Origin: Escherichia phage UFV-AREG1
Sequence record: KX009778
Strand: one strand, 5' to 3'
DNA: 64,000 nt
The notes beneath the pieces were generated by a model. It was not told the DNA's origin and searched no databases. It saw only the letters and a list, made by a program, of their open reading frames with translations. The position numbers and the translations under genes are program-made. This document shows positions 2,736-44,723 of this stretch, one piece after another (the first letter of the stretch is position 1; every line of letters begins with the position of its first letter).

Positions 2736-3866
2736 TTATGGATAGGTATAGATGATACCAGTTTCTAAAGCAGTTTTATGAATGATGTATCCATTACGTG
2801 ATTCTTGAACATCAACTTCTGGATAGTCTTTCATCATCTTCTGAAGAGTATAACGATGCAAGTAGTATTTACTATCTGGATCGTCAGTTTTCCAATCTTT
2901 ACCTTCTTCGGTCATTTTTTGGATTTCATCCATAACCCACCAACCGCACCAGATGTAAGCTGAAGTACGATGTGGAAGAGGATGAACATAAGGTAATTCA
3001 CCTTCTGGTTCTGGAGCAACTTTATCAGTTACCTGAACTTGACCTTCTGCTGTAATAGTTTTGCTATCATAATCAGTAGCAGTAACAGTTGCAGTAACTT
3101 CAATAGTTTGACTTCCAATAGATGAGGTATCAACGGTATATACATTAGTTGACCCTTCTACAGGAGAAGAATCTTTCTTCCATGAATATTCAATTTGCGC
3201 TTCTTCTGGAGCATCCGTAACATTAGCCGTAAATGTAGCCGAAGCATCTTGCTGAACGTTAATAGAAGGAGGAGTCAATGTAATCTGTGGATTCATTGTC
3301 TTCTTATTAACAGTCAGTGATACTTCATTAGAAGTAACTTCTTTTGCATCATAATCTGTTGCCGTCACTTGGGCTACACATTTAATTCTTTTTACTCCAC
3401 TTGTAGTTGGAGTATAGCTAAATGTAGCGTTAGTTGCTTCGCTCACAGGAGAATCATCTACATGCCACTGATACGTAGCAGATGCGCCTGATGGTTGAGA
3501 AGCTAAAGCAGCAGTAAATTCAACAGCTGTTCCGATTACTCCAGCAGCAGGGCTATCAGGAGTTACAGCCAATGTAGTTGTCTGAGTTTTATTTTGAACT
3601 GTGATAGTAGTTGACGCTTGAGCTGTTTCAGCTTCAGTATCAGGAACTGGATTTGTTGCAACTACCTTAATAGTCTTTTGACCGGCAGGTCCTTTTAACA
3701 CATAATCAAAAGTTGCCTCTGATCCTTCCTGAGGAACATCATCTACAGTCCAAGCATATGTAATAGGTCCATCTCCAGTTTGACCACTGGGCGTAGCAGT
3801 AAACTGCTGAGTCTGATCTATAACTCCAGTAGGTGTTTTAGGAGTTATATCAACTGTAAAAGCCAT
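2736..3866 (-). CDS. hoc: Highly immunogenic outer capsid protein Hoc
   Basis: 376 aa; tandem Ig-like domain repeats rich in T, S and V; T4 Hoc length. Confidence 0.9.
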   Translation of the reverse strand: MAFTVDITPKTPTGVIDQTQQFTATPSGQTGDGPITYAWTVDDVPQEGSEATFDYVLKGPAGQKTIKVVATNPVPDTEAETAQASTTITVQNKTQTTTLAVTPDSPAAGVIGTAVEFTAALASQPSGASATYQWHVDDSPVSEATNATFSYTPTTSGVKRIKCVAQVTATDYDAKEVTSNEVSLTVNKKTMNPQITLTPPSINVQQDASATFTANVTDAPEEAQIEYSWKKDSSPVEGSTNVYTVDTSSIGSQTIEVTATVTATDYDSKTITAEGQVQVTDKVAPEPEGELPYVHPLPHRTSAYIWCGWWVMDEIQKMTEEGKDWKTDDPDSKYYLHRYTLQKMMKDYPEVDVQESRNGYIIHKTALETGIIYTYP

Positions 3867-4606: not shown

Positions 4607-6118
4607 ATGACTGACATTAAAGTACATTTTTATGATTTTAGTCACGTGAGAATTGATTGTGAAGAAAGTACATTTCATGAACTCCGTGATTTCTTTAGCT
4701 TTGAAGCTGATGGGTATCGTTTTAATCCTCGCTTCAGATATGGCAACTGGGATGGGCGAATCCGTCTTTTAGATTATAATCGACTTCTTCCATTCGGCTT
4801 AGTCGGGCAAATTAAAAAGTTCTGTGATAACTTTGGCTATAAAGCCTGGATTGACCCGCAGATTAACGAAAAAGAAGAATTATCAAGAAAAGATTTTGAT
4901 GAATGGCTTTCTAAATTAGAAATCTATTCAGGAAATAAAAGAATTGAACCGCATTGGTATCAAAAAGATGCAGTGTTCGAAGGATTAGTTAATCGTCGTA
5001 GAATTCTTAATCTTCCAACATCCGCAGGTAAATCCTTAATTCAAGCTTTGCTTGCACGTTATTATTTGGAAAATTATGAAGGTAAAATTCTTATCATTGT
5101 TCCAACAACTGCTTTGACAACTCAGATGGCTGATGACTTTGTTGACTATCGTTTATTCAGTCATGCAATGATAAAGAAAATCGGTGGTGGAGCATCAAAA
5201 GATGATAAATATAAAAATGATGCACCAGTCGTTGTTGGTACATGGCAAACTGTAGTAAAACAACCAAAAGAATGGTTTTCCCAATTTGGTATGATGATGA
5301 ATGATGAATGCCATCTTGCTACAGGAAAAAGTATTTCATCTATCATATCAGGTTTAAATAACTGCATGTTCAAATTTGGTCTATCGGGTTCATTACGTGA
5401 TGGCAAAGCTAATATCATGCAGTATGTTGGAATGTTTGGTGAAATATTTAAGCCAGTAACGACTTCTAAATTAATGGAAGATGGACAAGTAACTGAGTTA
5501 AAAATTAATAGTATTTTTCTTCGTTATCCTGATGAGTTCACTACTAAATTAAAGGGAAAAACTTACCAAGAAGAAATAAAAATTATTACTGGGCTCAGTA
5601 AAAGAAATAAATGGATCGCTAAATTAGCTATTAAACTTGCGCAAAAAGATGAAAACGCTTTTGTCATGTTTAAGCATGTATCACATGGTAAAGCTATTTT
5701 CGATTTAATTAAAAATGAATACGATAAAGTTTATTACGTATCAGGGGAAGTTGATACCGAAACCCGTAATGTAATGAAAACATTAGCTGAAAACGGTAAA
5801 GGAATAATTATAGTAGCTAGTTATGGTGTATTTTCTACTGGTATTTCAGTTAAAAATCTGCATCACGTTGTTTTAGCGCACGGTGTTAAATCTAAAATTA
5901 TTGTATTGCAAACAATAGGTCGTGTATTACGTAAGCATGGTTCTAAGACAATAGCAACAGTCTGGGACCTCATAGATGACGCGGGCGTGGTTTCTAAATC
6001 AAAAACATCTTCTAAAAAATACTCGCATTTAAACTATCTTTTAAAACATGGACTTGATCGTATTCAGCGTTATGCTGATGAAAAGTTTAATTATGTGATG
6101 AAAGAGGTTAAACTTTGA
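4607..6118 (+). CDS. uvsW: UvsW SF2 DNA helicase
   Basis: 503 aa; Walker A TSAGKS and DECH box NDECH; T4 UvsW length. Confidence 0.95.
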   Translation: MTDIKVHFYDFSHVRIDCEESTFHELRDFFSFEADGYRFNPRFRYGNWDGRIRLLDYNRLLPFGLVGQIKKFCDNFGYKAWIDPQINEKEELSRKDFDEWLSKLEIYSGNKRIEPHWYQKDAVFEGLVNRRRILNLPTSAGKSLIQALLARYYLENYEGKILIIVPTTALTTQMADDFVDYRLFSHAMIKKIGGGASKDDKYKNDAPVVVGTWQTVVKQPKEWFSQFGMMMNDECHLATGKSISSIISGLNNCMFKFGLSGSLRDGKANIMQYVGMFGEIFKPVTTSKLMEDGQVTELKINSIFLRYPDEFTTKLKGKTYQEEIKIITGLSKRNKWIAKLAIKLAQKDENAFVMFKHVSHGKAIFDLIKNEYDKVYYVSGEVDTETRNVMKTLAENGKGIIIVASYGVFSTGISVKNLHHVVLAHGVKSKIIVLQTIGRVLRKHGSKTIATVWDLIDDAGVVSKSKTSSKKYSHLNYLLKHGLDRIQRYADEKFNYVMKEVKL

Positions 6119-6807
6119 ATTATAAATTAATATATGATAATTTAATTAATAGAGCCCAGAATCGGGCTCGCCTTAATGGATACACTGAAACTCATCATAT
6201 AATTCCTAGATGTATGGGTGGTACAGATGATAGGTGTAATTTAGTAGAACTAACAGCTGAAGAACATTTTATAGCCCATAAACTTTTAGCTAAAATTCAT
6301 CCAAATCATTACGGTATAATTAAAGCCGTTATATGTATGGGAATGAACTCAAAGACTCATGAAAGACACGTTAATAAATCTTACGCATGGGAACGTCGTA
6401 AAATGGCAGAACTTCAATCCGGTGAAGGTAATCCATTTTACGGAAAACACCATACGGAAGAACATAAACAATATATGTCAAAACTCATGAAAAGTCGTCC
6501 AATTACATGGGGAAATAAAATTAGTAAAACTAAAAGAATGAACCCAACAAAATGGACCGAAGAAGCTAAAAGATTACATTCAATCAATCAATCGGGTAAA
6601 AATAATGGCATGTATGGAAGGAAACATTCCGCTAAATCTATTCAGAAAATTAAAGATAACATGCCAGATAATTCAGGAGCTAATAACCCAGCTGCTAAAC
6701 CTATAGAAGTAAATGGTGTTAAATATAAATGTATGAAAGACGCTTCTAAAGCTGCTGGATTATCAATGTACAAACTAAGAATACTCAGAAAAACAGTTAA
6801 TTTATAA
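6115..6807 (+). CDS. HNH homing endonuclease (Mob-like) with NUMOD-type C-terminal DNA-binding motifs
   Basis: 230 aa; HNH motif HHIIPRCMGG...NLVELTAEEHFIAH; repeated G(K/R)xHSxE motifs; TTG start overlapping uvsW stop (TTGA) with RBS aagagg. Confidence 0.85.
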   Translation: MNYKLIYDNLINRAQNRARLNGYTETHHIIPRCMGGTDDRCNLVELTAEEHFIAHKLLAKIHPNHYGIIKAVICMGMNSKTHERHVNKSYAWERRKMAELQSGEGNPFYGKHHTEEHKQYMSKLMKSRPITWGNKISKTKRMNPTKWTEEAKRLHSINQSGKNNGMYGRKHSAKSIQKIKDNMPDNSGANNPAAKPIEVNGVKYKCMKDASKAAGLSMYKLRILRKTVNL

Positions 6808-27396: not shown

Positions 27397-27632
27397 AGTA
27401 CGCCATACACCCTTTGTGCTTCAACTAATCCATCAAAATCCAGTTTAAGATGCGATATTTGGTCACCATCACCTGGATTCACAATTACTAATACTGAACG
27501 AGGAGTTTCGGTAATAACACGAACCGATGTTTCAGGAAATCGTTCAGAAACCTTATTTACCAATTCCTGAGCAAATAGTTTAACTTTTTCTTGGAATTCT
27601 TTAACAGTAATTGGTTTTTCACTTAGCAGCAT
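27393..27632 (-). CDS. Hypothetical protein
   Basis: 79-aa ORF. Confidence 0.5.
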   Translation of the reverse strand: MLLSEKPITVKEFQEKVKLFAQELVNKVSERFPETSVRVITETPRSVLVIVNPGDGDQISHLKLDFDGLVEAQRVYGVL

Positions 27633-27693
27633 TTTGTTTTCCTCATTTGTTTGGTAGAGCTATAATATCACAACTCTACCGTAAAGTAAACTA

Positions 27694-27975
27694 TTAAATT
27701 GCTTTGAATTCTGCTGTCTGCGATTCAAAACGAATATCGCCTTTGATGACTAGCTCAGCATCAAGACCAAATACGACAATGATATGCGCGGAACCCGGAT
27801 ACAGCGTAATTGCAATAGAATCCACCTGGTCTGGAAGCAAAGTATTCAATACATGAGTCACTTGAGCATGAATTCGAAGCTCGGCTGCGTTATCAAGCTT
27901 TTCAAACATATTATTAGCGATAATTTGACTAAACACTACTTCTACGATTTTAGAATAAGTCGGAAACATATTCAC
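27694..27975 (-). CDS. Hypothetical protein
   Basis: 93-aa ORF. Confidence 0.5.
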   Translation of the reverse strand: MNMFPTYSKIVEVVFSQIIANNMFEKLDNAAELRIHAQVTHVLNTLLPDQVDSIAITLYPGSAHIIVVFGLDAELVIKGDIRFESQTAEFKAI

Positions 27976-32634: not shown

Positions 32635-33813
32635 TTAAAAATATTTTTTAAAACTCATCATAACTTTATCATCAACATCATTATCAATCTGTGCAACAAG
32701 GTAAGATGACAGTTCTACTTCTTGCGGCGCGGATTGAACATTATCAGAATTAAGATATTCACGAATCCAAGGATATGGGTGTTTAACCGGAGCATCGGTA
32801 ATTGGGCATGGAAGACCACACTGTTTCATACGAGATACAGTTAAGTAATCAATAAAGCTCCACATGCTATTTGTATTTAATCCAGGAACATCGCCATCTT
32901 TAAATAAATGAACTGCCCAATCTTTTTCTTGGCGGTTAACTTCCATGAAAATATCAACTGCTTCTTGTTCACACTCTTGAGCAATTTTAACCCATTCATC
33001 GCCGTCAGTGCCAAGTTGAAGTTGACGAATAATATATTGGGTGCCTTTAAGGTGAAGCTGCTCATCACGTGCAATGAACTTCATAATCTTGGCATTACCT
33101 TCCATAATTTCCATGTTCTTATGGAAGTTAAAGGTACATGCGAAAGATACATAAAAACGAATAGCTTCCAATGCGTTGATTACATGCAAACAGAGGTAAA
33201 GAGATTTCATTAGCTCACGCTTCCAATATGTCTCATGCTCAATAGCATCTTCAATAACGTCTTCGTCTGCATTAATTTCTTTTTGGTATTCGATATCAGC
33301 TTTAGCGTTTTCCCAATAACGAGTTTTAATCAGAACATCATCATAATAACGTCCAATTGATTCAGCACGTTTCATAATAGCTTCATCTAATACAATCTCA
33401 TCAAACACCTTCGATGGATCAGTATAAAGATTTCGCATGATATGTGTATATGAACGGCTGTGAATAGTTTCACTAAAAGTCCACGTAGCAACCCATGTAT
33501 CAAGGCTTGGGTCTGAAATTAATGACATAAGTACAGCAGATGGCGCGCGACCCTGAATGCTATCCAAAAGTGATTGATACTTCAGGTTATTAGTAAAAAT
33601 ATTCTGCTGATACTGAGGAAGTTTATTAAATTGCGCAGCATCCATCATCAAGTTTACTTCTTCAGGACGCCAGAAAAATGATAATTGCTTTTCAGTCAAA
33701 TCTTCAAAAACTTTATGGCGTTGAATATCATAACGCGCAATACCAAGACCTGAACCGAAGAACATAGGTTCTTTTAAAACATCAACTGGATTTGTATTAA
33801 AAACTGTGCTCAT
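32635..33813 (-). CDS. nrdB: Ribonucleotide reductase small subunit NrdB, uninterrupted
   Basis: 392-aa continuous ORF with di-iron ferritin-like composition; no intron gap. Confidence 0.92.
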   Translation of the reverse strand: MSTVFNTNPVDVLKEPMFFGSGLGIARYDIQRHKVFEDLTEKQLSFFWRPEEVNLMMDAAQFNKLPQYQQNIFTNNLKYQSLLDSIQGRAPSAVLMSLISDPSLDTWVATWTFSETIHSRSYTHIMRNLYTDPSKVFDEIVLDEAIMKRAESIGRYYDDVLIKTRYWENAKADIEYQKEINADEDVIEDAIEHETYWKRELMKSLYLCLHVINALEAIRFYVSFACTFNFHKNMEIMEGNAKIMKFIARDEQLHLKGTQYIIRQLQLGTDGDEWVKIAQECEQEAVDIFMEVNRQEKDWAVHLFKDGDVPGLNTNSMWSFIDYLTVSRMKQCGLPCPITDAPVKHPYPWIREYLNSDNVQSAPQEVELSSYLVAQIDNDVDDKVMMSFKKYF

Positions 33814-33864
33814 AAATTTTCCACTTAGTTAATAGATAGTGACTCGTCCATGAGTCAAATTATA

Positions 33865-34854
33865 TCATAATTTACAGGATGAACAATCTTCAGCTTTTGG
33901 AGTTTCTATTTCATAATCATCAGTACCAGAACCATCGCGGGTATTATGATAATAGAAATTTTTTCCACCAAAATACCAAAAATACAAAAGGTCATCAATC
34001 ATTATTGACATTGGAACCTTTCCTTTTGGAAAAATCTGCGGGTCATAGTATGTATTCGCCGAAGCTGATTGACATACCCATTTCAGCATAATAGCTACCT
34101 GCGTGAGATAAGGTTTATTACCTTTCTTAGCTAATTTCCATGTATAATCATAGAGGTCTATGTTATGCTCAATATTGGGCACGACTTGATTAAAGGAGCC
34201 CTCTTTTGATTCTTTAACAGAGACTGGTCCACGTGGAGGCTCGATACCGTTTGTACTGTTAGAAACTTGGGAAGATGACTCACATGGCATAAGTGCTGAT
34301 AATGTGCTATTACGGATGCCAAAGAGCTTAAGGTCTTCCCGCAGCGACGACCAGTCACAAACGTATTTTGGAGCTGCGATTTGGTCAATCTTTTTATTGT
34401 ACCAGTCGATAGGTAATTCGCCTCGAGACCAACGAGTGTCTGAATAATATTCGCAAGGTCCTTTTTCTTTGGCGAGCTTAATGGATGCTTTAATGAGTCC
34501 ATACTGTAATCTCTCAAATAGTTCATGTGTTAAATCGTTAGCATCTTCATAAGAAGCAAAGTTACTTGCCAGCCAAGCTGCATAGTTGGTAACACCTACA
34601 CCGAGGTTACGACGCTTTTTAGCTTTTTCTGCTTCAGGAACTGGATATCCTTGGTAATCCAACAGATTATCAAGAGCACGAACTTGAACTTCTGCCAATT
34701 CATTAATTTTATCTTGGTCTTGCCAGTCAAAATTATCCAGTACGAATGCAGAGAGAGTACAAAGGCCCACTTCACCTTTGTTTTCAATAACTTGTATTGT
34801 TGTATACTCATCATCTTCGTAAAATTCATCTACAAATTCATAATCAATATTCAT
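33865..34854 (-). CDS. nrdA: Ribonucleotide reductase large subunit, C-terminal fragment (nrdA-b)
   Basis: 329 aa; NrdA C-terminus incl. CTLSAF (E. coli C462 region) and C-terminal CxxxxC tail (EDCSSCKL); own ATG overlapping HNH stop. Confidence 0.85.
   Translation of the reverse strand: MNIDYEFVDEFYEDDEYTTIQVIENKGEVGLCTLSAFVLDNFDWQDQDKINELAEVQVRALDNLLDYQGYPVPEAEKAKKRRNLGVGVTNYAAWLASNFASYEDANDLTHELFERLQYGLIKASIKLAKEKGPCEYYSDTRWSRGELPIDWYNKKIDQIAAPKYVCDWSSLREDLKLFGIRNSTLSALMPCESSSQVSNSTNGIEPPRGPVSVKESKEGSFNQVVPNIEHNIDLYDYTWKLAKKGNKPYLTQVAIMLKWVCQSASANTYYDPQIFPKGKVPMSIMIDDLLYFWYFGGKNFYYHNTRDGSGTDDYEIETPKAEDCSSCKL
34649..34761. repeat. Direct repeat A, copy 1 (113 bp, inside nrdA-b)
   Basis: Identical to 35776..35888; encodes GLCTLSAFVLDNFDWQDQDKINELAEVQVRALDNLLDYQG. 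Confidence 0.85.
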
Positions 34855-35687
34855 TTAATTCTTCTACCTTTTTTCGAGATATTCCTAGAGCTTTAGATGC
34901 TCGATGTATTGATTGATATTCTATACCGTTTATTTTTACAGCAATTAAGTTATGGGGTTTTAATCCCTTTGGATGAGGTTTACTGACGTATTCTTGATTA
35001 TCGTTTTCAGAGATGTTATCAAGCTTTCGACACTTAAAGCCTTTATGTTGAGACCTTTTGCCTTTGCATACGGCCGACATTGCCGAAGCATTGAGTGAAT
35101 GTAGTTCGCAAAATTCTCTTAGGCCTTTATGGATTTCTTCATGACCGTCCGGGAAAGTAAATACCCAAGTTGTTTGAAGTTTTTCTCTATGCTCGTCAGT
35201 TACCGGAATACCTTTGTTCCAAGCTGGTTTGCCTTTATTATTTTCAGATACAGAAATAGCCAATTTTCTTCTAAGCCACCCATGGCGTTTATTGGTGTTC
35301 TTTCGTTCAATATTATCTTCAGAATAAACACACATCATATTAGCGGCAAATACCAATTTATGATTATCTGGATATATCTTTACTAATAATTGATGAGCTA
35401 TGTAATGCTCTTCGGGTGTCAAATCTACCAGGTTTTCCTTTGTATCAGAACCACCAATACACAGAGGTATAATATGGTGTGATTCGGTATAGCAATCTAA
35501 TTTTCTGTTCTTAGCTTTAGAAATAAGGTTATTGTAAATTTTAGAATAATCCATAACTTTTCCTCTTGTTATGGATTATTTATTAACGGACTGTGTACTT
35601 TATTTGCTTTGAATTATACCGCCAGGATTAGCTTCATAAAACTTAGCTACATCCGACTTCTTAATTTTGATTAAACGGGTTTGTTGG
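34762..35687 (-). mobile_element. HNH homing-endonuclease insertion cassette splitting nrdA
   Basis: About 0.9 kb between duplicated nrdA segments, containing the HNH ORF plus a new N-terminal extension for nrdA-b. Confidence 0.7.
34844..35554 (-). CDS. HNH homing endonuclease (Mob-like) inserted in nrdA
   Basis: 236 aa; HNH motif HHIIPLCIGG...NLVDLTPEEHYIAH; C-terminal NUMOD-like GISRKKV; paralogue of ORF 6115..6807. Confidence 0.85.
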   Translation of the reverse strand: MDYSKIYNNLISKAKNRKLDCYTESHHIIPLCIGGSDTKENLVDLTPEEHYIAHQLLVKIYPDNHKLVFAANMMCVYSEDNIERKNTNKRHGWLRRKLAISVSENNKGKPAWNKGIPVTDEHREKLQTTWVFTFPDGHEEIHKGLREFCELHSLNASAMSAVCKGKRSQHKGFKCRKLDNISENDNQEYVSKPHPKGLKPHNLIAVKINGIEYQSIHRASKALGISRKKVEELNEY

Positions 35688-35774
35688 CTATTCACATCAT
35701 TTGTTGGAATAGCAATTTCACAGCACAAGTTACTCTGACGAATAGGTGCCTTTTCACGAATAAACGGAGTATAG
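35688..35774. repeat. Direct repeat B, copy 1 (87 bp)
   Basis: Identical to 35911..35997; encodes YTPFIREKAPIRQSNLCCEIAIPTNDVNS. Confidence 0.85.
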
Positions 35775-37256
35775 ACCTTGGTAATCCAACAGATTATCAA
35801 GAGCACGAACTTGAACTTCTGCCAATTCATTAATTTTATCTTGGTCTTGCCAGTCAAAATTATCCAGTACGAATGCAGAGAGAGTACACAATCCAATTTC
35901 AGCATCAGGACTATTCACATCATTTGTTGGAATAGCAATTTCACAGCACAAGTTACTCTGACGAATAGGTGCCTTTTCACGAATAAACGGAGTATAGTTA
36001 TTCGTATTATCAATGAACTGCACATAAATCCTTGCTGTTCCTGAGCGTTCAGTCATGAGCAATTCAAATAGTTCACGGGCTTTAATACGCTTTTTACGAA
36101 TATTAGGGTCTTTTTCTGCTGCTTCGTATAATTCACGGAAACGGTCTTGGTCTTTAAAATAAGAATAATAAAGCTCGCCACCCATTTCATGTGGACTGAA
36201 CAAAGTAATATAATCGTTCTTTCCGAATCGTTCCATCATCAAATCATTCAGTTGAACACCATAATCCATATGACGAATGCGGTTTTCTTCTACGCCTTTG
36301 TTATTTTTCAAAACGAGAAGATTTTCAACTTCCAAATGCCAAATAGGATAATAAGCAGTAGCAGCGCCGCCACGAATTCCACCCTGTGAACATGATTTAA
36401 CTGCAGTCTGAAAATGTTTCCAAAAAGGAATAACACCAGTATGACGTACTTCACCCATGCCAATTTTAGAACCTTCAGCACGAATCATACCAACATTAAT
36501 ACCAATTCCAGCGCGTTTAGAGATATATTCAACAATTGAAGCGGAAGCCTTATTGATAGACTTCAATGAATCTCCTGCCTCAATAACGACGCATGAACTA
36601 AACTGCCGAGTTGGAGTACGACAGCCAGCCATAATAGGAGTTGGTAATGAAATCTGTCGAGTAGATACCGCTTCATAAAAACGAATAACGTGTTTTAATC
36701 TATCAACAGGTTCATCTTGATGCAATGCCATTCCAATAGTCATAAATGCAAACTGTGGAGTTTCATAAATTTGACCAGTGGTTTTATCTTTAACGAGATA
36801 TTTTTCTTTTAATTGCATCGCCCCGGAATAAGTAAATTCCATATCCCGCTCGTGCTTAATTTTTGATTCTAAAAATGTAATTTCTTCTGCTGAATATTTT
36901 GACAGCAGTTCAGGGTCATATTTACCTTCATTTACACAGTAAGAAATATGGTCAATAAATGAACGTGGTTCATATTGTCCGTAAACATGCTTACGAAGAG
37001 CAAACATTAAACAGCGTGCAGCTACATATTGATAATCAGGTTCTTCAACCGAAATAGAATTCGCAGCGGCCTTAATGACAATAGTCTGAATATCATCAGT
37101 GGTCATTCCATCACGGAGATATGATTTAATATTTTCATATAATTCATAAGGATCTACAGATGTTCCTTCAGCTGCCCAAGATAAAACTTTAATAATTTTT
37201 TGTGGGTCAAAGCTCTGAGAAACACCACTACTTTTGATAACATTAATTAATTGCAT
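35754..37256 (-). CDS. nrdA: Ribonucleotide reductase large subunit, N-terminal fragment (nrdA-a)
   Basis: 500 aa; N-terminal ATP-cone and catalytic core incl. NLCCEIAIP (E. coli N437/C439/E441 equivalent); ends 6 codons after repeat A. Confidence 0.85.
   Translation of the reverse strand: MQLINVIKSSGVSQSFDPQKIIKVLSWAAEGTSVDPYELYENIKSYLRDGMTTDDIQTIVIKAAANSISVEEPDYQYVAARCLMFALRKHVYGQYEPRSFIDHISYCVNEGKYDPELLSKYSAEEITFLESKIKHERDMEFTYSGAMQLKEKYLVKDKTTGQIYETPQFAFMTIGMALHQDEPVDRLKHVIRFYEAVSTRQISLPTPIMAGCRTPTRQFSSCVVIEAGDSLKSINKASASIVEYISKRAGIGINVGMIRAEGSKIGMGEVRHTGVIPFWKHFQTAVKSCSQGGIRGGAATAYYPIWHLEVENLLVLKNNKGVEENRIRHMDYGVQLNDLMMERFGKNDYITLFSPHEMGGELYYSYFKDQDRFRELYEAAEKDPNIRKKRIKARELFELLMTERSGTARIYVQFIDNTNNYTPFIREKAPIRQSNLCCEIAIPTNDVNSPDAEIGLCTLSAFVLDNFDWQDQDKINELAEVQVRALDNLLDYQGLYSVYS
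35776..35888. repeat. Direct repeat A, copy 2 (113 bp, inside nrdA-a)
   Basis: Identical to 34649..34761. Confidence 0.85.
35911..35997. repeat. Direct repeat B, copy 2 (87 bp, inside nrdA-a)
   Basis: Identical to 35688..35774. Confidence 0.85.
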
Positions 37257-37573
37257 AAGTCCTCAACTTGAAAATCGTCTTTAAACAATCGGTTAACTAT
37301 ATGAGCTATTATATCACCATGACACGGCTTTGGTTTACATGTGCATCCTAGCCTCATTCCACGTAAAGGCTCTAAATGTGCTTTAGTTATTTCTCCGGAT
37401 TTAATTCGACGTATAAAATCTTTTTTGAATAATTCAATGGCAGCCTCCCGGCTGCCAGCATCTTTACCGACGTAATTTCCCCAAAATGTACCACGGTGAA
37501 TATTAACATCAAAGTCGGATTTATATTTATTCACTACCTGGCATAGACGGCCCGCGCGGTGATAATTCGTCAT
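37247..37573 (-). CDS. Hypothetical Cys-rich protein, nrdA.1-like
   Basis: 108-aa ORF; [12 protein letters not shown] motif. Confidence 0.55.
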
Positions 37574-37790
37574 ATTGTTTTTCCGTTAATACAGTAATAT
37601 CATAGTAACAATCTGAAGAAGTTTTAACTGTGGAAATTTTATTATCAAAATACTCACGAGTCATTTTATGAGTATAATATTTTTTACCATAAATGATAAT
37701 AGGCTGTTCTGGTCCTGGAACTTCTAACTCGCTTGGGTTAGGAAGTGTAAAAAGAACAACGCCAGAAGTATCTTTAAATCGTAAAATCAT
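37527..37790 (-). CDS. Hypothetical protein, nrdA.2-like
   Basis: 87-aa ORF; start overlaps td stop. Confidence 0.45.
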
Positions 37791-38647
37791 ATTGCCATTT
37801 TCCCTTTAATTGCCGGATGCGATTCATAATTTTCAAGGATAAAATCTTTCGGTTTCATGTATTCAGTTAACCAGTAAAGCTGTGTTTCGGTGTCACAATT
37901 TTCAAACTCTATAGGCCAATCAATTTTAAGTTCGCACAGTTCTTTAGGCTCACGACGTAAAATTTCTTTACATTGTTCTACGTGATTCATATAGATATGA
38001 GTATTACCACCAGAAAATATCAAATCTCCTGGGATAAGATTACACATCTTAGCCATAATATGCGTCAAGGCAGCGTACGAGGCAATGTTGAATGGCAAGC
38101 CCAAGAAAACATCTACACTTCTTTGGTACCACTGTAAATCAAGATAACCATTACGCACATTAAACTGATAGAACATATGACAGGGTGGTAATGCCATTTG
38201 ATTGATTTCAGCTGGATTCCATGCTGAAACGATTTGACGTCGATCAGTTGGTAATTTTTTAATACGATCAATAGTTTCAACTAATTGATCCACACCACCG
38301 AAATCACGCCATTGTTTACCATATATAGGACCCAGTTCACCACTATGATATCCTAGGTCTTTAGCTTGGTTTTCATAATTGTCATCCCAGATAGTTTTAC
38401 CTTGAATAAGACTACCGTGAGTAAGAAGACGTAAATCATTAACATTGGTAGAACCGGAAATAAACCATAAAAGCTCAGCAATGCATGCATTCCAGGCGAG
38501 CTTCTTAGTTGTTACTGCAGGAAAACCTTTACTTAAATCCCAGCGTAATTTAGTACCGAACAAAGCAATTGTTCCTGTGCCCGTTCGGTCATCGGTTTCA
38601 TAGCCATTTTCAAAAATGTCTTTAATTAAATCTTGGTATTGTTTCAT
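37787..38647 (-). CDS. td: Thymidylate synthase, intron-less
   Basis: 286-aa continuous ORF; active-site [10 protein letters not shown]; full T4 TS length without the intron. Confidence 0.95.
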
Positions 38648-39059: not shown

Positions 39060-39886
<827 letters not shown>

Positions 39887-39896
39887 ATTATTTTCC

Positions 39897-40139
39897 TTAA
39901 ACAGACTTTTTCACATTTTTCCAATCAGCTTTAAACTGCTCGACGTCAGAATGGTAAATCCAAAATCCTGCGCTTTCTCCATCTTCATAAAGAGGACATC
40001 CATCGCATTCATCTTCCCATCCCATATCACGTAAAAGATGTTCAGCTTTTTCAACAAGTTCAGAATCTTTACCGATGATATTAAAATACCATTTACCTTT
40101 AACTTGTGAATCTTTGATGCTCTGGCGTTGTAATCTCAT
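39897..40139 (-). CDS. Hypothetical protein, frd.2-like
   Basis: 80-aa ORF. Confidence 0.5.
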   Translation of the reverse strand: MRLQRQSIKDSQVKGKWYFNIIGKDSELVEKAEHLLRDMGWEDECDGCPLYEDGESAGFWIYHSDVEQFKADWKNVKKSV

Positions 40140-40975: not shown

Positions 40976-41881
40976 TTAAAGGTCATTCAAAAGGTCATCC
41001 AGGTCCGTGTCATCAGCACTAGATGAACTGCCAGAGCTTGAGCTCATAAAATCATCTTCAGTTTTTGTTTTGAAGTCATCAACATTGAATGCATCCAAAT
41101 CATCAGCAACTTTATCAGCTTTCTTAGCGGCAGTTGCAGCGGCACCGCCCATCACAGCAGTTCCCATAACTTGACCGAATTTAGTATTCAGTTCTTCAAA
41201 CGATTTGAATTTATCTTTAGAAGTCATTTCAGAAAGGTCAACCATTTGTTCGAACAGTTCTTTCTGGAAAGATTCATCGTCAATGTTTGGAATCGCAGAT
41301 TGATTCAGGAATTTAGATTCGTCGTAGTTACTAAATCCAGAAACTTGTTTAACTTTTAGTACAAAGTTAGCACCTTCCCACGGACAAGTTACATCAACCG
41401 GAGTTTCACCCATTTCAACATCAACCGCAATCATTGCATTGATTTTATCCCAGATTTTCTTACCGAAACGGTATTTAAATACTTTACCTTCGTTTTCTGG
41501 AGCAGCCGGGTCTTTTACTACAAGAATGTTAGCCCAGTAAGAAGTTTTGCGTTTAACAAGACTGTACTCTTTATTGTCAGTGTTGTACAAATCATTTTTA
41601 CTGATGTACTGACATACTGGGCAAGAATCGTAATCACCGTGGGTAGATGAACATGTTTCAATATACCATTTACCATTTTTCTTGAAACCGTGATTTACAA
41701 GAATTGCGAATGGTGCTTGTTCATCATTTTTAGACGGAAGAAAACGAATTACTGCTTGACCGTTACCCGCATTATCGAGTTTCAGTTTCCACTCGCCTTT
41801 ATCTTCAGAAGAAAAACCTTTATTGCCATTCAGTTTAGCCATTTGTGCAGCAAGTTCAGCAGTAGATTTACGTTTAAACAT
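40976..41881 (-). CDS. 32: Single-stranded DNA-binding protein gp32
   Basis: 301 aa; zinc-binding [10 protein letters not shown]; acidic C-terminal tail. Confidence 0.95.
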
Positions 41882-41930
41882 TTTATTTCCTTTTTAATTT
41901 AATTAACAGTTGGTGCTATGACACTTTACC

Positions 41931-42560
41931 TCATAGCTGGCATAATTTGCAATACTCTGGGTCTTCGAGAGGTATCCAACCTGAGTTGAAATACTTTACC
42001 ATCGATTTAGCAGTTGTATCAGTTATATTTATATTACCTTTAACTCTTCGCCATCCAGGAGTTTTACCGTACAGATTAGAGGATAATAACACATAATTCT
42101 CGTAAGCAATATGAGATAATTTCCAAGACTCTATATTAGCTCGTGATGTTTTCCAAGGTCTAAAATCATCACGGTTCATATAATTAGCCAATCTCATATG
42201 CTCTCTAACTTCCGGGTCTTTGGCTGGATGAGTTTCACCACTCACACCAAATCCACCACCAGCATATACCAGATTAAAATAGTCTGGATTATCTCTGGCA
42301 TTTACTTCAAGTTGGTATTTTCGTTCTGCTTCAATAACATCCAAGTCATCATCAATTTGAATTATTTTAACGCTCGGTTTTTGAAGCATTACCGCATTCA
42401 AAAATCTTTTTTGTTTACATGAGCTCCAGTATTCCTTTCCGGAAGAGTCATATATTATTCCGTTCTCAAATGAGCAATTTAATTTACTACCGATATAGTA
42501 GTATGGCGGAGTCTTATTTTTGACACGGTCTTCAAATGTAAACCAATATACTATATTCAT
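41931..42560 (-). CDS. GIY-YIG homing endonuclease, Seg-like (segG position)
   Basis: 209 aa; N-terminal IVYWFTF...YYYIGSK GIY-YIG motif; located between 32 and 59. Confidence 0.65.
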   Translation of the reverse strand: MNIVYWFTFEDRVKNKTPPYYYIGSKLNCSFENGIIYDSSGKEYWSSCKQKRFLNAVMLQKPSVKIIQIDDDLDVIEAERKYQLEVNARDNPDYFNLVYAGGGFGVSGETHPAKDPEVREHMRLANYMNRDDFRPWKTSRANIESWKLSHIAYENYVLLSSNLYGKTPGWRRVKGNINITDTTAKSMVKYFNSGWIPLEDPEYCKLCQL

Positions 42561-42561
42561 A

Positions 42562-43215
42562 TTAATACTTGCAAGATTTCACAGTTTCAATAAAAACTTT
42601 TTTAGCTTCCTGTGAATCAATATTTAAAATTTTTCTATAAGCCTTTAACTTTATAGAATAATTATTCCAGACTAAATTATCAGTCTGTTCATCATGTTTA
42701 TCAATTATATTTAAAAACGAATCAAGCAAGATAAACGTCTCAAACGAAATTATGTTCGATTGCAGAAGTTTAAAAATATAACTTGATTGAACTTTTGGAT
42801 TATATTCAAAAATTTCTTTAAAAGCAGAAACTTCAACTTTTTTACTAAAATAATAAATGTTGCGAATATCTTCTTCAAACTTAAATTTAATTTGCTTTAA
42901 GCGTCCGATATATTCACGATAAAACACAAGTGCATCAGCGTCAGAGATGTCACCAATCCAAGCATCCTGGTTAGCAACCAGATTGCTTATAAAGATTAAA
43001 GCAAGTTCCTTTAATTTATATTTTTCTGATAACTTCTGGAAAAAATACTTATCCCTTCGCTTTTGATAAGCGGCATCAGACACCCGCATGCACCAATTGT
43101 ACTTAATAACATCATATTTTCCATTCATATGTTGTTTTATCATTAAGTATAATTTATAAACTGATTTACCATCAATATATCTTTCACCACCAGCAGGCAT
43201 GCGGAGTTTAATCAT
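42562..43215 (-). CDS. 59: Helicase loader gp59
   Basis: 217 aa; T4 gp59 length and sequence. Confidence 0.9.
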   Translation of the reverse strand: MIKLRMPAGGERYIDGKSVYKLYLMIKQHMNGKYDVIKYNWCMRVSDAAYQKRRDKYFFQKLSEKYKLKELALIFISNLVANQDAWIGDISDADALVFYREYIGRLKQIKFKFEEDIRNIYYFSKKVEVSAFKEIFEYNPKVQSSYIFKLLQSNIISFETFILLDSFLNIIDKHDEQTDNLVWNNYSIKLKAYRKILNIDSQEAKKVFIETVKSCKY

Positions 43216-43550
43216 AGTAGAAAATCTAATGTATTAGTTTTTTCACAACGAACAACAGAAGGACGTAAAAGATTTTCGTCAATAGCTTCTGACTGAATTT
43301 TTTCAATTATACCCGAAGGAATAAATTTAGCAAATTGAGTTTCAGGAATAGAATTTTCTTCCAAGAATGCTGTTGTAGCTTCAAGATAACTCATTCCAAA
43401 CTCTTCTACCATTTTTTCAATAATAAATCCATTTTCTTGACGATCAAGAAGCTTTGCTATTTCATCCTTTTCTTTCTTAATTGAAAGTTCTTTTTCTGAA
43501 AGACCGGTCTCATCGACCGGACGAATATCATTTAGAGAAAACTGTGTCAT
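43212..43550 (-). CDS. 33: Late transcription co-activator gp33
   Basis: 112 aa from MTQFSL. Confidence 0.85.
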   Translation of the reverse strand: MTQFSLNDIRPVDETGLSEKELSIKKEKDEIAKLLDRQENGFIIEKMVEEFGMSYLEATTAFLEENSIPETQFAKFIPSGIIEKIQSEAIDENLLRPSVVRCEKTNTLDFLL

Positions 43551-43797
43551 AAAGTTCAACTACCTCTTCAGTTTCAGCTTCAAACACATCACGATTATCT
43601 TTATGATACAAAGCTAATAGACGATTAAACATCTTACCATCAACACCAAGTTCATCTTTGGCACGAATTCGAATATCTTTAATCAGTTCATTATAACCGG
43701 AAATTTTCAGTTTATGATCAGATGCTTCTTTAATAAATTTAGCCAAGTCTTCGCCATGGATAGCTTCATCAAATTCAACCACTTCTTTTTTAGCCAT
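43528..43797 (-). CDS. dsbA: Double-stranded DNA-binding protein DsbA
   Basis: 89 aa; synteny. Confidence 0.8.
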   Translation of the reverse strand: MAKKEVVEFDEAIHGEDLAKFIKEASDHKLKISGYNELIKDIRIRAKDELGVDGKMFNRLLALYHKDNRDVFEAETEEVVELYDTVFSK

Positions 43798-43805
43798 TAT
43801 TCACC

Positions 43806-44723
43806 TCAAAATTCATTAATGCTATTAGTTAATTTAGAAAGACCCGCTTTTACAAAATATGAATAAATTTTGCCACGCGGTGGTAATTTATATGAATTAT
43901 AGTAATTCACAATGTTTGAAGCAATATTATCAGGAATATAATCAAAATCAATTAGAACTAAATTTTCTTTATAACGATTATATTCAGATTCTGTGAGAAG
44001 CACCTTAGCTTGCTCACGGTCATTAGCAATAGCTTCAACGATTGAAGTTTTCATTGAAGGAGTTCGTTCACCTTCAACTCTGGTAAACCAAAAGTCAGAT
44101 CGTACTTTAACTGAAGCAACGTTATCCTTTTTGTCACCTTTAAGGATTTTAGTCATACAGTCAATTTCAGCAGAACCGCTTTTAATTTTAACCCATTTCT
44201 TATGCATCGGTGACCATTGCTTAACATTTGGATATTTGTGAAGCTGTGTAAAGTCACCATCCGATGAAATGATTAAAATCTTATGTCCTTCTAAAGAGAA
44301 CTTTTTAACAAGAACAGCAATGTGGTCATCCGCTTCATACTTATCAATATCCATAACAATGTATGGCATATAAGCTTTCAATTCATCTATAACTTTATGG
44401 CTGGATTCAAAATAACCTTCCCAGTCCCAAGTAGATTCTTCTCGTGCTTTTCCGCGGTTTTTCTTATAATAATACGCGAAATCACGACGCCAGTATCCAG
44501 ATTTCGCATTATCGATACACAGTACAATTTTAGTGTATCCAAGAGCTTTTGCTTTTTTGACATTAAACTTAATTGAGTTCAATATCAAATGACGAACCAT
44601 TGATAAATTAATTTTTTCTTTATCTGGGAAGTTTACCAAAGCAGTTGAAAGCGCAATTTGACTAAAGTCAATTAAGCAAATTCCTTCTTTGTAATCTTCA
44701 TCCAGCATCATTTCTAAATCCAT
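43806..44723 (-). CDS. rnh: RNase H (5'-3' exonuclease, FEN family)
   Basis: 305 aa from MDLEMMLDEDY. Confidence 0.9.
   Translation of the reverse strand: MDLEMMLDEDYKEGICLIDFSQIALSTALVNFPDKEKINLSMVRHLILNSIKFNVKKAKALGYTKIVLCIDNAKSGYWRRDFAYYYKKNRGKAREESTWDWEGYFESSHKVIDELKAYMPYIVMDIDKYEADDHIAVLVKKFSLEGHKILIISSDGDFTQLHKYPNVKQWSPMHKKWVKIKSGSAEIDCMTKILKGDKKDNVASVKVRSDFWFTRVEGERTPSMKTSIVEAIANDREQAKVLLTESEYNRYKENLVLIDFDYIPDNIASNIVNYYNSYKLPPRGKIYSYFVKAGLSKLTNSINEF

Follow-up and report, generated by a model that had tools for sequence, protein, structure and literature searches.

The nrdA gene in the 64,000-nt stretch of Escherichia phage UFV-AREG1 analysed here (KX009778; hereafter the window) is split by the MobE cassette known from nrdA of Aeromonas phage Aeh1, and the region around the insertion point carries a 223-nt tandem-type duplication. 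We consider it probable (about 0.6) that the locus represents an Aeh1-type MobE cassette in nrdA together with a recent 223-bp aberrant recombination joint, and an aberrant recombination product is ranked above the less likely assembly artefact as the origin of that joint. The split gene itself is nothing new; it is the known Aeh1 MobE system, which is annotated in dozens of coliphage genomes. The genes-in-pieces RNR of Aeh1, in the order nrdA-a, mobE, nrdA-b, was reportedly described by Friedrich et al. in 2007.

Anatomy of the split nrdA and its cassette

The RNR large subunit is encoded by two minus-strand ORFs with a gene for a 236-aa HNH protein between them, and the coordinates and lengths given in the preliminary description were confirmed (Table 1). 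The 500-aa N-fragment comprises the ATP-cone and all-alpha domains, the first barrel half and the NxCxE loop, and it also carries a copy of the C462-equivalent strand and helix, followed by a frameshift tail (LYSVYS*). The C-fragment, NrdA-b, supplies the remaining half of the barrel together with the YY and CSSC motifs at the C-terminus, and its protein is identical in phage REP3 and in two independent assemblies. The Pfam barrel model is covered from 1 to 268 by the N-fragment and from 219 to 523 by the C-fragment, and NF006578, the NCBIfam equivalog for class Ia NrdA, is matched at positions 4-497 and 451-759, with scores of 666.6 and 364.4 bits against a cut-off of 813. The full NrdA domain set and the equivalog coverage are thus reached only by the two ORFs taken together; both are intact, and every catalytic residue is present between them.

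Table 1. Features of the split nrdA locus and its surroundings, with positions in the window
Feature	Position	Strand	Remarks
nrdA N-terminal ORF (500 aa)	35754..37256	-	Ends ...LLDYQGLYSVYS; ORF calling, family models
Repeat A1 (87 nt)	35911..35997	-	Encodes YTPFIREKAPIRQSNLCCEIAIPTNDVNS, in frame within the N-fragment
Link, uninterrupted (22 nt)	35889..35910	-	TCCTGATGCTGAAATTGGATTG, PDAEIGL region; identical to the cassette-free RB14 allele
Repeat B1 (113 nt)	35776..35888	-	Encodes CTLSAF...LLDYQG; 100% identical to B2
Filler T, single nt at the B1/A2 joint	35775..35775	-	Templated by neither parental context
Repeat A2 (87 nt)	35688..35774	-	100% identical to A1; out of frame in the N-fragment ORF
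Basic C-terminal tail (CTE) and stop codon	35600..35686	-	QQTRLIKIKKSDVAKFYEANPGGIIQSK; identical to other split alleles
RNA hairpin (13 bp)	35545..35580	-	mobE AUG in the stem, GAGG Shine-Dalgarno in the loop
mobE, Aeh1-type (HNH homing endonuclease, 236 aa)	34844..35554	-	ORF calling, homology
Acidic N-terminal tail (NTE) of the C-fragment	34768..34854	-	MNIDYEFVDEFYEDDEYTTIQVIENKGEV; homologous to the Aeh1 NrdA-b tail
Repeat B2 (113 nt)	34649..34761	-	In-context copy within the C-fragment
nrdA-b, C-fragment (329 aa, own ATG)	33865..34854	-	ORF calling, family models
nrdB (392 aa, without intron; context only)	32635..33813	-	51 nt downstream of nrdA-b

The break point lies between NLCCEIAIP and CTLSAF, and the segment GLCTLSAF...LLDYQG is common to both fragments. 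Alignment to E. coli NrdA, together with the Aeh1 map and proteins, places the insertion between the N437/C439/E441 loop and the C462 strand, which bears out the earlier claim that this is the site at which MobE splits nrdA in Aeh1. The gap between nrdA and nrdB, previously put at about 50 bp, measures 51 nt, and no T4-type mobE was found in this gap of the window. A group I intron was rejected because no Rfam match was obtained up to E = 1 in 33500-37500, and an intein was rejected because each piece forms an ORF of its own, with separate stop and start codons.

The cassette consists of the basic tail CTE, the HNH homing-endonuclease gene and the acidic tail NTE. The HNH protein is 100% identical to the protein of phage HY01 and matches phrog_655 ('homing endonuclease') at 2.8e-60. 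Its match to Pfam PF01844 (E = 0.0035, 17.9 bits) lies below the 21.4 cut-off, PF22083 (I-HmuI NUMOD-like domain) is above its cut-off, and the HH...N...H residues align with those of Aeh1 and T4 MobE. The match to Aeh1 MobE extends over the full length, including the C-terminal DNA-binding part, with 48% identity over 229 aa (E ~3e-62). The HNH protein is thus a full-length orthologue of Aeh1 MobE, and the cassette is the same as that of Aeh1.

The flanking tails, with pI values of 10.0 (CTE) and 4.05 (NTE), are homologous to those of Aeh1 as well (LIKIKKSDVAKF versus LFKVKKSEVDKF; YEDDEYTTIQV versus YEDEEYTTVEI), and MNIDYEFVDEFYEDDEYTTIQVIENKG of the NTE is homologous to MIEHERIYEVYEDEEYTTVEIEV of Aeh1. 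The 29-aa NTE, taken for novel in the preliminary description, is therefore not novel. Crona et al. (2010; PMC3045599), who treat the nrdA-a/mobE/nrdA-b genes of Aeh1 as a genes-in-pieces RNR, matched the Aeh1 tails to nothing. The tails are clearly conserved between the Aeromonas and coliphage cassettes, and thus travel with the element as a built-in repair kit. The CTE is translated as part of NrdA-a in REP3, HY01, e11/2 and 236Ecol005PP, and it is invariant across cassette lineages that are 83 nt apart in mobE.

As in Aeh1, a gap of ~45 nt precedes mobE, mobE overlaps the start of nrdA-b (by 11 nt here), and a hairpin covers the mobE translation start. The whole 91-nt fold of the hairpin region has an energy of -18 kcal/mol (z = -3.55), and the hairpin resembles a regulatory one described for Aeh1 mobE (PMC2988022). 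The full-length match to Aeh1 MobE, the homologous tails and the near-equal gene spacing and overlap contradict the proposal of an independent invasion. Unlike the Aeh1 locus, the backbone here is that of a Tequatrovirus, with the locus in a denA-nrdB-nrdA-td block; it also differs from Aeh1 in its 223-nt duplication, which leaves a target copy without insertion upstream and removes the CTE from the reading frame.

The MobE-split nrdA cassette is present in ~33 GenBank Tequatrovirus records, out of ~505 matching records, and is already annotated there as split. These phages include HY01, PEC04, REP2/REP3, e11/2 (vB_EcoM_112), fPS-2, fPS-90, F2 and IME537, among others. The e11/2 record labels the gene 'MobE', and a 2022 preprint mentions 'Aeh1 and several others' as 'MobE_split' (bioRxiv 10.1101/2022.08.31.505936), so the novelty for coliphages that had been implied does not hold. 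The cassette DNA of these carriers is up to 99.6% identical to that of the window; compared with HY01 and REP3 the cassette shows no more than ~4 mismatches per kb, and the flanks show 2-9 per 100 nt. This patchy distribution, with an element that is far more conserved than its flanks, is, as far as sequence comparison can tell, the pattern of a mobile element, and the Aeh1-type MobE cassette, already known as a genes-in-pieces system, is at present spreading through the Tequatroviruses. An IMG/VR search for orthologous cassettes returned only paralogues of the HNH N-terminal domain.

The 223-nt duplication and its joint

On the minus strand, the order of the elements is A1, the 22-nt link, B1, a single T, A2, the cassette and B2, and the repeat unit of 223 nt is made up of the 87-nt A, the 22-nt link, the 113-nt B and one filler T. 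In split alleles, the cassette stands in place of the link, which in the window is presumably a still-intact homing target. The window is colinear with the intact-nrdA phage RB14 down to 35776 and with the split-nrdA phage REP3 from 35774 on; the duplication joins an intact-allele copy of the target region to a cassette-bearing copy. The second repeat (A1/A2) and the tandem-type duplication had been overlooked in the preliminary description.

The filler T makes the unit 223 nt rather than 222 nt long and thus causes a frameshift, and the LYSVYS* end of the N-fragment is A2 read in the shifted frame. The CTE coding sequence (35603-35686) is intact but out of frame with the 500-aa ORF, and the C-terminal stretch that replaces it has a charge of -8. 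The 38-aa segment containing CTLSAF is indeed shared by both fragments, as had been noted, but because it is a result of the 223-nt duplication it does not stand as a sign of a functional enzyme.

Compared with the window, each of the other split genomes shows 1-14 nt of difference in A and B. Since A1 equals A2 and B1 equals B2, the copies share one genetic background. Of the 71 HY01 CDS, 68 align with the window in a single reading frame over >97% of their length; the other three are a CDS truncated at the edge of the window and two that encode small hypothetical proteins. This clean alignment indicates that the joint is not part of a general indel noise, and general sequencing frameshift noise was rejected on this ground.

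Searches for the B1-T-A2 joint in the phage collection (42-nt megablast), IMG/VR and JGI metagenomes gave no match, and exact look-up of the 500-aa protein showed that it is not on record. The span is ~223 nt shorter than that of the window in each of the 27 records with a coverage of ≥80% of the 3.5-kb query. A 477-aa NrdA-a is encoded by all contigs with an identical C-fragment (REP3, ENA ERZ27280504 and Logan SRR27143241) and by all other split alleles examined, none of which has the duplication. The suggested search of T4-like genomes thus recovers the insertion (~33 records), but not the duplication. Alleles of the HY01/REP3 type, which share the HNH protein (HY01) and NrdA-b (REP3) with the window, differ from it in a NrdA-a that ends in the CTE, without the extra A1-link-B1 copy and without the B-T-A joint.

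Origin of the joint and alternative explanations

The joint most likely arose around the time of a homing event, when illegitimate recombination or template switching between isogenic genomes with and without the cassette would have fused an uninterrupted target copy (A1-link-B1) via one untemplated T to a cassette-bearing copy (A2-CTE-mobE-NTE-B2). The reading frame of the N-fragment continues across the intact junction, shifts at the joint and ends, so that the N-fragment gains a redundant C462-equivalent strand and helix and loses its basic tail. The Aeh1 fragments with NrdB provide the precedent of an active enzyme, and deletion of both tails lowers RNR activity ~2000-fold, the tails being essential (PMC3045599). 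By analogy with Aeh1, the loss of the basic tail from the N-fragment suggests that the class Ia RNR large subunit of this phage is probably inactive or badly impaired. The Aeh1 test concerned the deletion of both tails, not the loss of one tail with the gain of an overlapping segment, and overlapping protein fragments sometimes still complement each other.

An assembly or finishing artefact is a possible but clearly less probable source of the joint. A mixed stock of isogenic cassette-free and cassette-bearing phages would have produced a bubble in the assembly graph, and the contig ends of the two paths would have been concatenated with their overlap untrimmed, for example on rotating or closing a circularly permuted genome; in that case, nrdA in the actual genomes would be either split in the ordinary way or intact. 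The structure does read as the intact allele as far as the end of B and then the split allele beginning with A, no other example of the joint turned up in the collections searched, and it is biologically awkward for a target site to adjoin the gene of its own endonuclease. A1 and A2, and likewise B1 and B2, are moreover 100% identical, and such perfect identity is equally expected from a mis-joined assembly of a cassette-plus/cassette-minus stock. However, the B-to-A adjacency occurs in neither allele, so that a de Bruijn assembler needs spanning reads for the joint, and the repeats are unequal (87 and 113 nt), unlike a fixed k-mer overlap. The extra T fits neither parental context, none of 50,697 phage records has GGT as a natural form of the Gly codon that closes B, and the remaining 60 kb of the window is free of assembly noise.

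The preliminary description had favored a functional split RNR in which CTLSAF is deliberately kept in both fragments, following an independent HNH invasion of a coliphage nrdA. The intact ORFs with their joint set of catalytic residues, the C-fragment, which keeps its acidic tail and is identical to the C-fragment of ordinary split alleles, and the complementation that overlapping fragments could show in principle are consistent with such an enzyme. We regard it as very improbable, given that the other split alleles examined all lack the overlap, that the overlap deprives the N-fragment of its conserved basic tail, an essential element in Aeh1 (PMC3045599), and that it terminates by a frameshift rather than at a designed terminus; an independent invasion is opposed by the homology of cassette and tails to those of Aeh1 at the same site. 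Similarly little weight is given to the idea that the single T reflects a base-calling error or is skipped through +1 ribosomal frameshifting. Without the T, the frame is open through A2 into the CTE and its normal stop codon, and translation would give an NrdA-a of 551 aa that repeats 74 aa internally, keeps the basic tail at its end and might remain functional. But GGT-CTA is neither a homopolymer nor a known slippery site, other frameshifts are absent from the window, and a 74-aa repeat of the active-site finger loop and the next strand would probably misfold.

Under the favored recombination origin, mobE would lie 223 nt away from a target copy that MobE could apparently still cleave. Homologous exchange between A1 and A2 would yield the ordinary split allele and exchange between B1 and B2 an intact nrdA; because both are possible, the arrangement is probably recombinationally unstable. 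As a point against this origin, an active MobE should quickly convert an intact target in cis, and a stable lineage of such a structure is unexpected. That the structure is real and heritable, as a frozen by-product of intron-less homing with the cassette and the uncut target 223 bp apart, seems rather unlikely to us. If it were, it would offer a substrate for studying the gain, loss and transposition of free-standing endonuclease cassettes, a test of whether MobE-type enzymes spare cis targets, and a test of overlapping-fragment RNR function without the basic tail.

Should reads confirm the 223-bp joint, the locus would represent a rare natural product of aberrant homing or recombination that holds the invaded and the uninvaded allele in one molecule, and the phage RNR would probably be inactivated; an artefactual joint would instead call for correction of the record. 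Phages are known to tolerate the loss of their RNR, and the DRT9 defence system even selects for it; T5 and Bas37 with frameshifts in nrdA remain viable and escape DRT9 (PMC12483538).

Related elements and duplications in T4

In T4, mobE lies between nrdA and nrdB, and T4 MobE nicks nrdB in vivo (PMC2790892). The T4 gene is also a free-standing homing-endonuclease gene of the nrd operon, and its N-terminal HNH domain is related to that of the window protein (46% identity over 127 aa). In contrast, its C-terminal DNA-binding region is unrelated, and therefore its target would differ; T4 mobE also splits no gene, and its position is empty here.

In T4, the MobA element divides the topoisomerase gene into genes 39 and 60 and supplies a CTE and an NTE (bioRxiv 10.1101/2022.08.31.505936). 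Like the cassette in the window, it is a Mob-family HNH cassette that extends the two halves of an essential-pathway enzyme in this way, but the MobA element has another target gene and other tails, and the locus in the window has no translational bypass element.

Tandem duplications of T4, among them the classical rII duplications, are head-to-tail, arise by illegitimate recombination and are expected to segregate via homologous recombination. The head-to-tail repeat in the window would likewise be expected to segregate between its copies. Here, however, the copies are heteroallelic, one with the cassette and one without it, so the two possible resolutions would yield two different functional alleles.

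Repeats in the split nrdA gene

The window is a Tequatrovirus (T4-like) genome segment with the minus-strand gene order rnlA, denA, nrdB, nrdA, nrdA.1, nrdA.2, td and frd. The three open reading frames (ORFs) of the preliminary description are present at nrdA as it had placed them, but a second repeat pair had been overlooked, and the nrdA region contains two pairs, not one. The first and third ORFs encode two parts of class Ia NrdA (Pfam, NCBIfam), which overlap both in the barrel domain (positions 1-268 and 219-523; Pfam) and in the 761-position NrdA equivalog model (positions 4-497 and 451-759; NCBIfam). T4-type mobE is absent from the 51-nt nrdA-nrdB gap of the window.

Coordinates of repeats, ORFs and neighbouring features in the window
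Feature	Coordinates	Strand	Size and identity	Basis
Repeat A1	35911-35997		87 nt, 100% identical to A2	repeat search and direct reading
Repeat A2	35688-35774		87 nt, 100% identical to A1	repeat search and direct reading
Repeat B1	35776-35888		113 nt, 100% identical to B2	repeat search and direct reading
Repeat B2	34649-34761		113 nt, 100% identical to B1	repeat search and direct reading
Link between A1 and B1	35889-35910		22 nt	
nrdA N-fragment ORF	35754..37256	-	500 aa	ORF reading
HNH gene ORF	34844..35554	-	236 aa	ORF reading
nrdA C-fragment ORF (NrdA-b)	33865..34854	-	329 aa	ORF reading
ORF starting in the link	35600-35905	-	101 aa	
Second HNH gene	6115-6807	+	230 aa	
nrdB	32635-33813	-		
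Divergent patch in nrdB	33200-33299		100 nt	
td	37787-38647	-		
frd	39060-39641	-		

The minus-strand order is A1, the link (TCCTGATGCTGAAATTGGATTG), B1, one T, A2, the basic C-terminal tail of NrdA-a (CTE), the HNH gene, the acidic N-terminal tail of NrdA-b (NTE) and B2. The intact nrdA of phage RB14, which lacks the cassette (CTE, mobE and NTE), is colinear with the window down to the end of B1, and colinearity with the split nrdA of phage REP3 begins at the first base of A2. The repeat unit of 223 nt (87 + 22 + 113 + 1) is not a multiple of three, and therefore the 500-aa ORF, after reading A1, the link and B1 as normal NrdA, enters A2 in the wrong frame (GLYSVYS, then stop). When the T is removed in silico, the ORF continues in frame and yields a 551-aa protein with the usual tail at its end. 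The 101-aa ORF begins at an ATG in the link, is out of frame across B1 and then in register with A2 and the CTE; it has no evident ribosome-binding site and is a by-product of the duplication.

The resident cassette and its spread

The 236-aa protein matches the PHROG 'homing endonuclease' family 655 (2.8e-60) and contains an I-HmuI NUMOD-like domain above the Pfam cut-off, while the Pfam HNH model scores below its own cut-off. The protein shows 48% identity across its whole length (E about 3e-62) to MobE of Aeromonas phage Aeh1 (NC_005260: nrdA-A 43207-44628, mobE 42447-43160, nrdA-B 41489-42460), whereas its match to T4 MobE is limited to the N-terminal 127 residues. The tails added to the broken NrdA ends are homologous between the window phage and Aeh1, at the C terminus (QQTRLIKIKKSDVAKF... 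and KKEKMLFKVKKSEVDKF...) as at the N terminus (MNIDYEFVDEFYEDDEYTTIQVIE... and MIEHERIYEVYEDEEYTTVEIEV...), with the same charge pattern: their pI values are 10.0 (CTE) and 4.05 (NTE) in the window, and 10.4 and 3.8 in Aeh1 (Crona et al., PMC3045599). In both phages mobE follows the nrdA-a stop codon after about 45 nt and overlaps the nrdA-b start. A 13-bp hairpin with the mobE AUG in its stem recalls the ribosome-binding-site hairpin of Aeh1 mobE (PMC2988022). The full-length MobE match, the homologous tails and the shared charge pattern and layout identify this as the Aeh1-type MobE cassette at the same nrdA site. The split at the Aeh1 site, as first described, is thus supported, and the independent invasion of a coliphage nrdA proposed with it is not. 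A group I intron was rejected because no Rfam family matched in the nrdA/cassette region.

The split of nrdA is also already known: 33 of about 505 phage-collection records matching the adjoining nrdA sequence carry the cassette, annotated as two NrdA pieces and a homing endonuclease (called MobE in phage e11/2). A 2022 preprint (bioRxiv 10.1101/2022.08.31.505936) also mentions splits of this kind in 'Aeh1 and several others'. Twelve of the 33 are at least 99% identical in protein, HY01 among them at 100%. The cassette differs from those of HY01 and REP3 by at most about 4 bases per kb and the flanks by 2-9 per 100 nt, and such a conserved cassette amid divergent flanks is the signature of an element moving between backbones. 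The CTE coding sequence shows 0-1 differences between cassette lineages with 83 differing positions in mobE.

Database annotation of the split gene is inconsistent. HY01 RefSeq NC_027349 has no CDS for either nrdA fragment (33983-34972, 35718-37151), gp218 and gp220 being absent from its table, and elsewhere the fragments are labelled 'hypothetical protein' or two 'NrdA' genes. In a cassette-bearing Logan contig (SRR27143241, about 3585-3630, equivalent to the start of B2), the first ~40 nt of nrdA-b past the tail are strongly recoded (TGTACCCTTAGCGCTTTTGTGTTGGATAACTTCGATTGG), with about 12 changed bases that seem to be synonymous. The recoding may be left over from the donor's co-conversion tract or from target-site immunity; at this site the sequence is T4-like in the window, in REP3 and in an ENA metagenome contig.

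Authenticity and origin of the duplication

Every record covering most of the 3.5-kb query has a span about 223 nt shorter than the window. The identical 329-aa NrdA-b occurs in REP3, the ENA metagenome contig and the Logan contig, each time partnered by a 477-aa NrdA-a. The B1-T-A2 joint was not found in the phage collection, IMG/VR or JGI metagenomes, and the look-up returned no record of the 500-aa protein. The duplication is peculiar and possibly artefactual.

We nevertheless take the duplication to be real, with a probability of roughly 0.6. An assembler would need spanning reads to create the joint, because the B-to-A adjacency is present in neither the intact nor the split allele; this counts against an artefact, as do the unequal lengths of the repeated stretches and the T at the joint, which comes from neither parental context and from no variant found in the databases. 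In addition, 68 of 71 HY01 CDS align to the window in one frame over >97% of their length; of the remaining three, one is truncated at the window edge and two encode small hypothetical proteins, so frameshift noise is not apparent. An artefactual joint, which we hold to be less likely, would nonetheless account for the perfect identity of the A copies and of the B copies, for a structure in which the intact allele runs exactly to where B ends and the split allele takes over exactly where A begins, and for the lack of other instances; an intact target adjoining its own endonuclease gene is, moreover, biologically awkward. The window lacks two HY01 genes for hypothetical proteins (175 aa and 119 aa), at about 27630-27700 and about 39890-39900, which is ordinary presence/absence variation among T4-like phages.

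Each of the other cassette-bearing genomes shows 1-14 differences from the window across A and B, whereas the copies inside the window are identical, which suggests that both copies come from one background. For a real duplication, the simplest scenario would begin with the cassette homing into this backbone, with co-conversion limited to very short tracts. Isogenic genomes with and without the cassette would then have been joined illegitimately during one and the same infection, with a single filler base at the joint. Alternatively, the order may have been reversed, with the duplication preceding homing into one of two target copies.

Probable consequences for the reductase, and signs of neighbouring mosaicism

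The N-fragment lacks the basic tail, and its C-terminal stretch past NDVNS is acidic (charge -8) and bears the duplicated strand-and-helix segment. A functional significance of the 38-aa segment shared by both fragments, from which a functional split enzyme had been suggested, is not supported: the segment stems from the duplication, which puts the basic tail out of frame. In Aeh1, deletion of both tails lowers activity about 2000-fold and abolishes dATP-driven dimerisation (PMC3045599); by analogy, the loss of the basic tail suggests that the RNR large subunit of this phage is probably inactive or weak. Such a defect would be tolerable: frameshifts in nrdA leave T5 and Bas37 viable and let them escape DRT9 (PMC12483538).

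The link has exactly the sequence of the RB14 allele, which is free of the cassette, and on that account is expected to be a target of the resident endonuclease. If A1 recombined with A2, the ordinary split allele would be restored; if B1 recombined with B2, nrdA would become intact again. Such an arrangement is not expected to last long.

A second MobE-family HNH homing-endonuclease gene, with a TTG start, lies between uvsW and uvsW.1, where HY01 has only about 25 nt; its product matches phrog_655 (1.1e-59) and is 34% identical to the nrdA-resident enzyme. Unlike in T4, td and nrdB are intron-free in the window. The divergent patch shows 48 mismatches to HY01 (neighbouring bins, 2-15) and has the appearance of a mosaic or recombined segment within nrdB. 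The td and frd products share only about 85% protein identity with HY01, while most neighbours share 97-100%, which suggests that the genome is locally mosaic around the nrd/td block.
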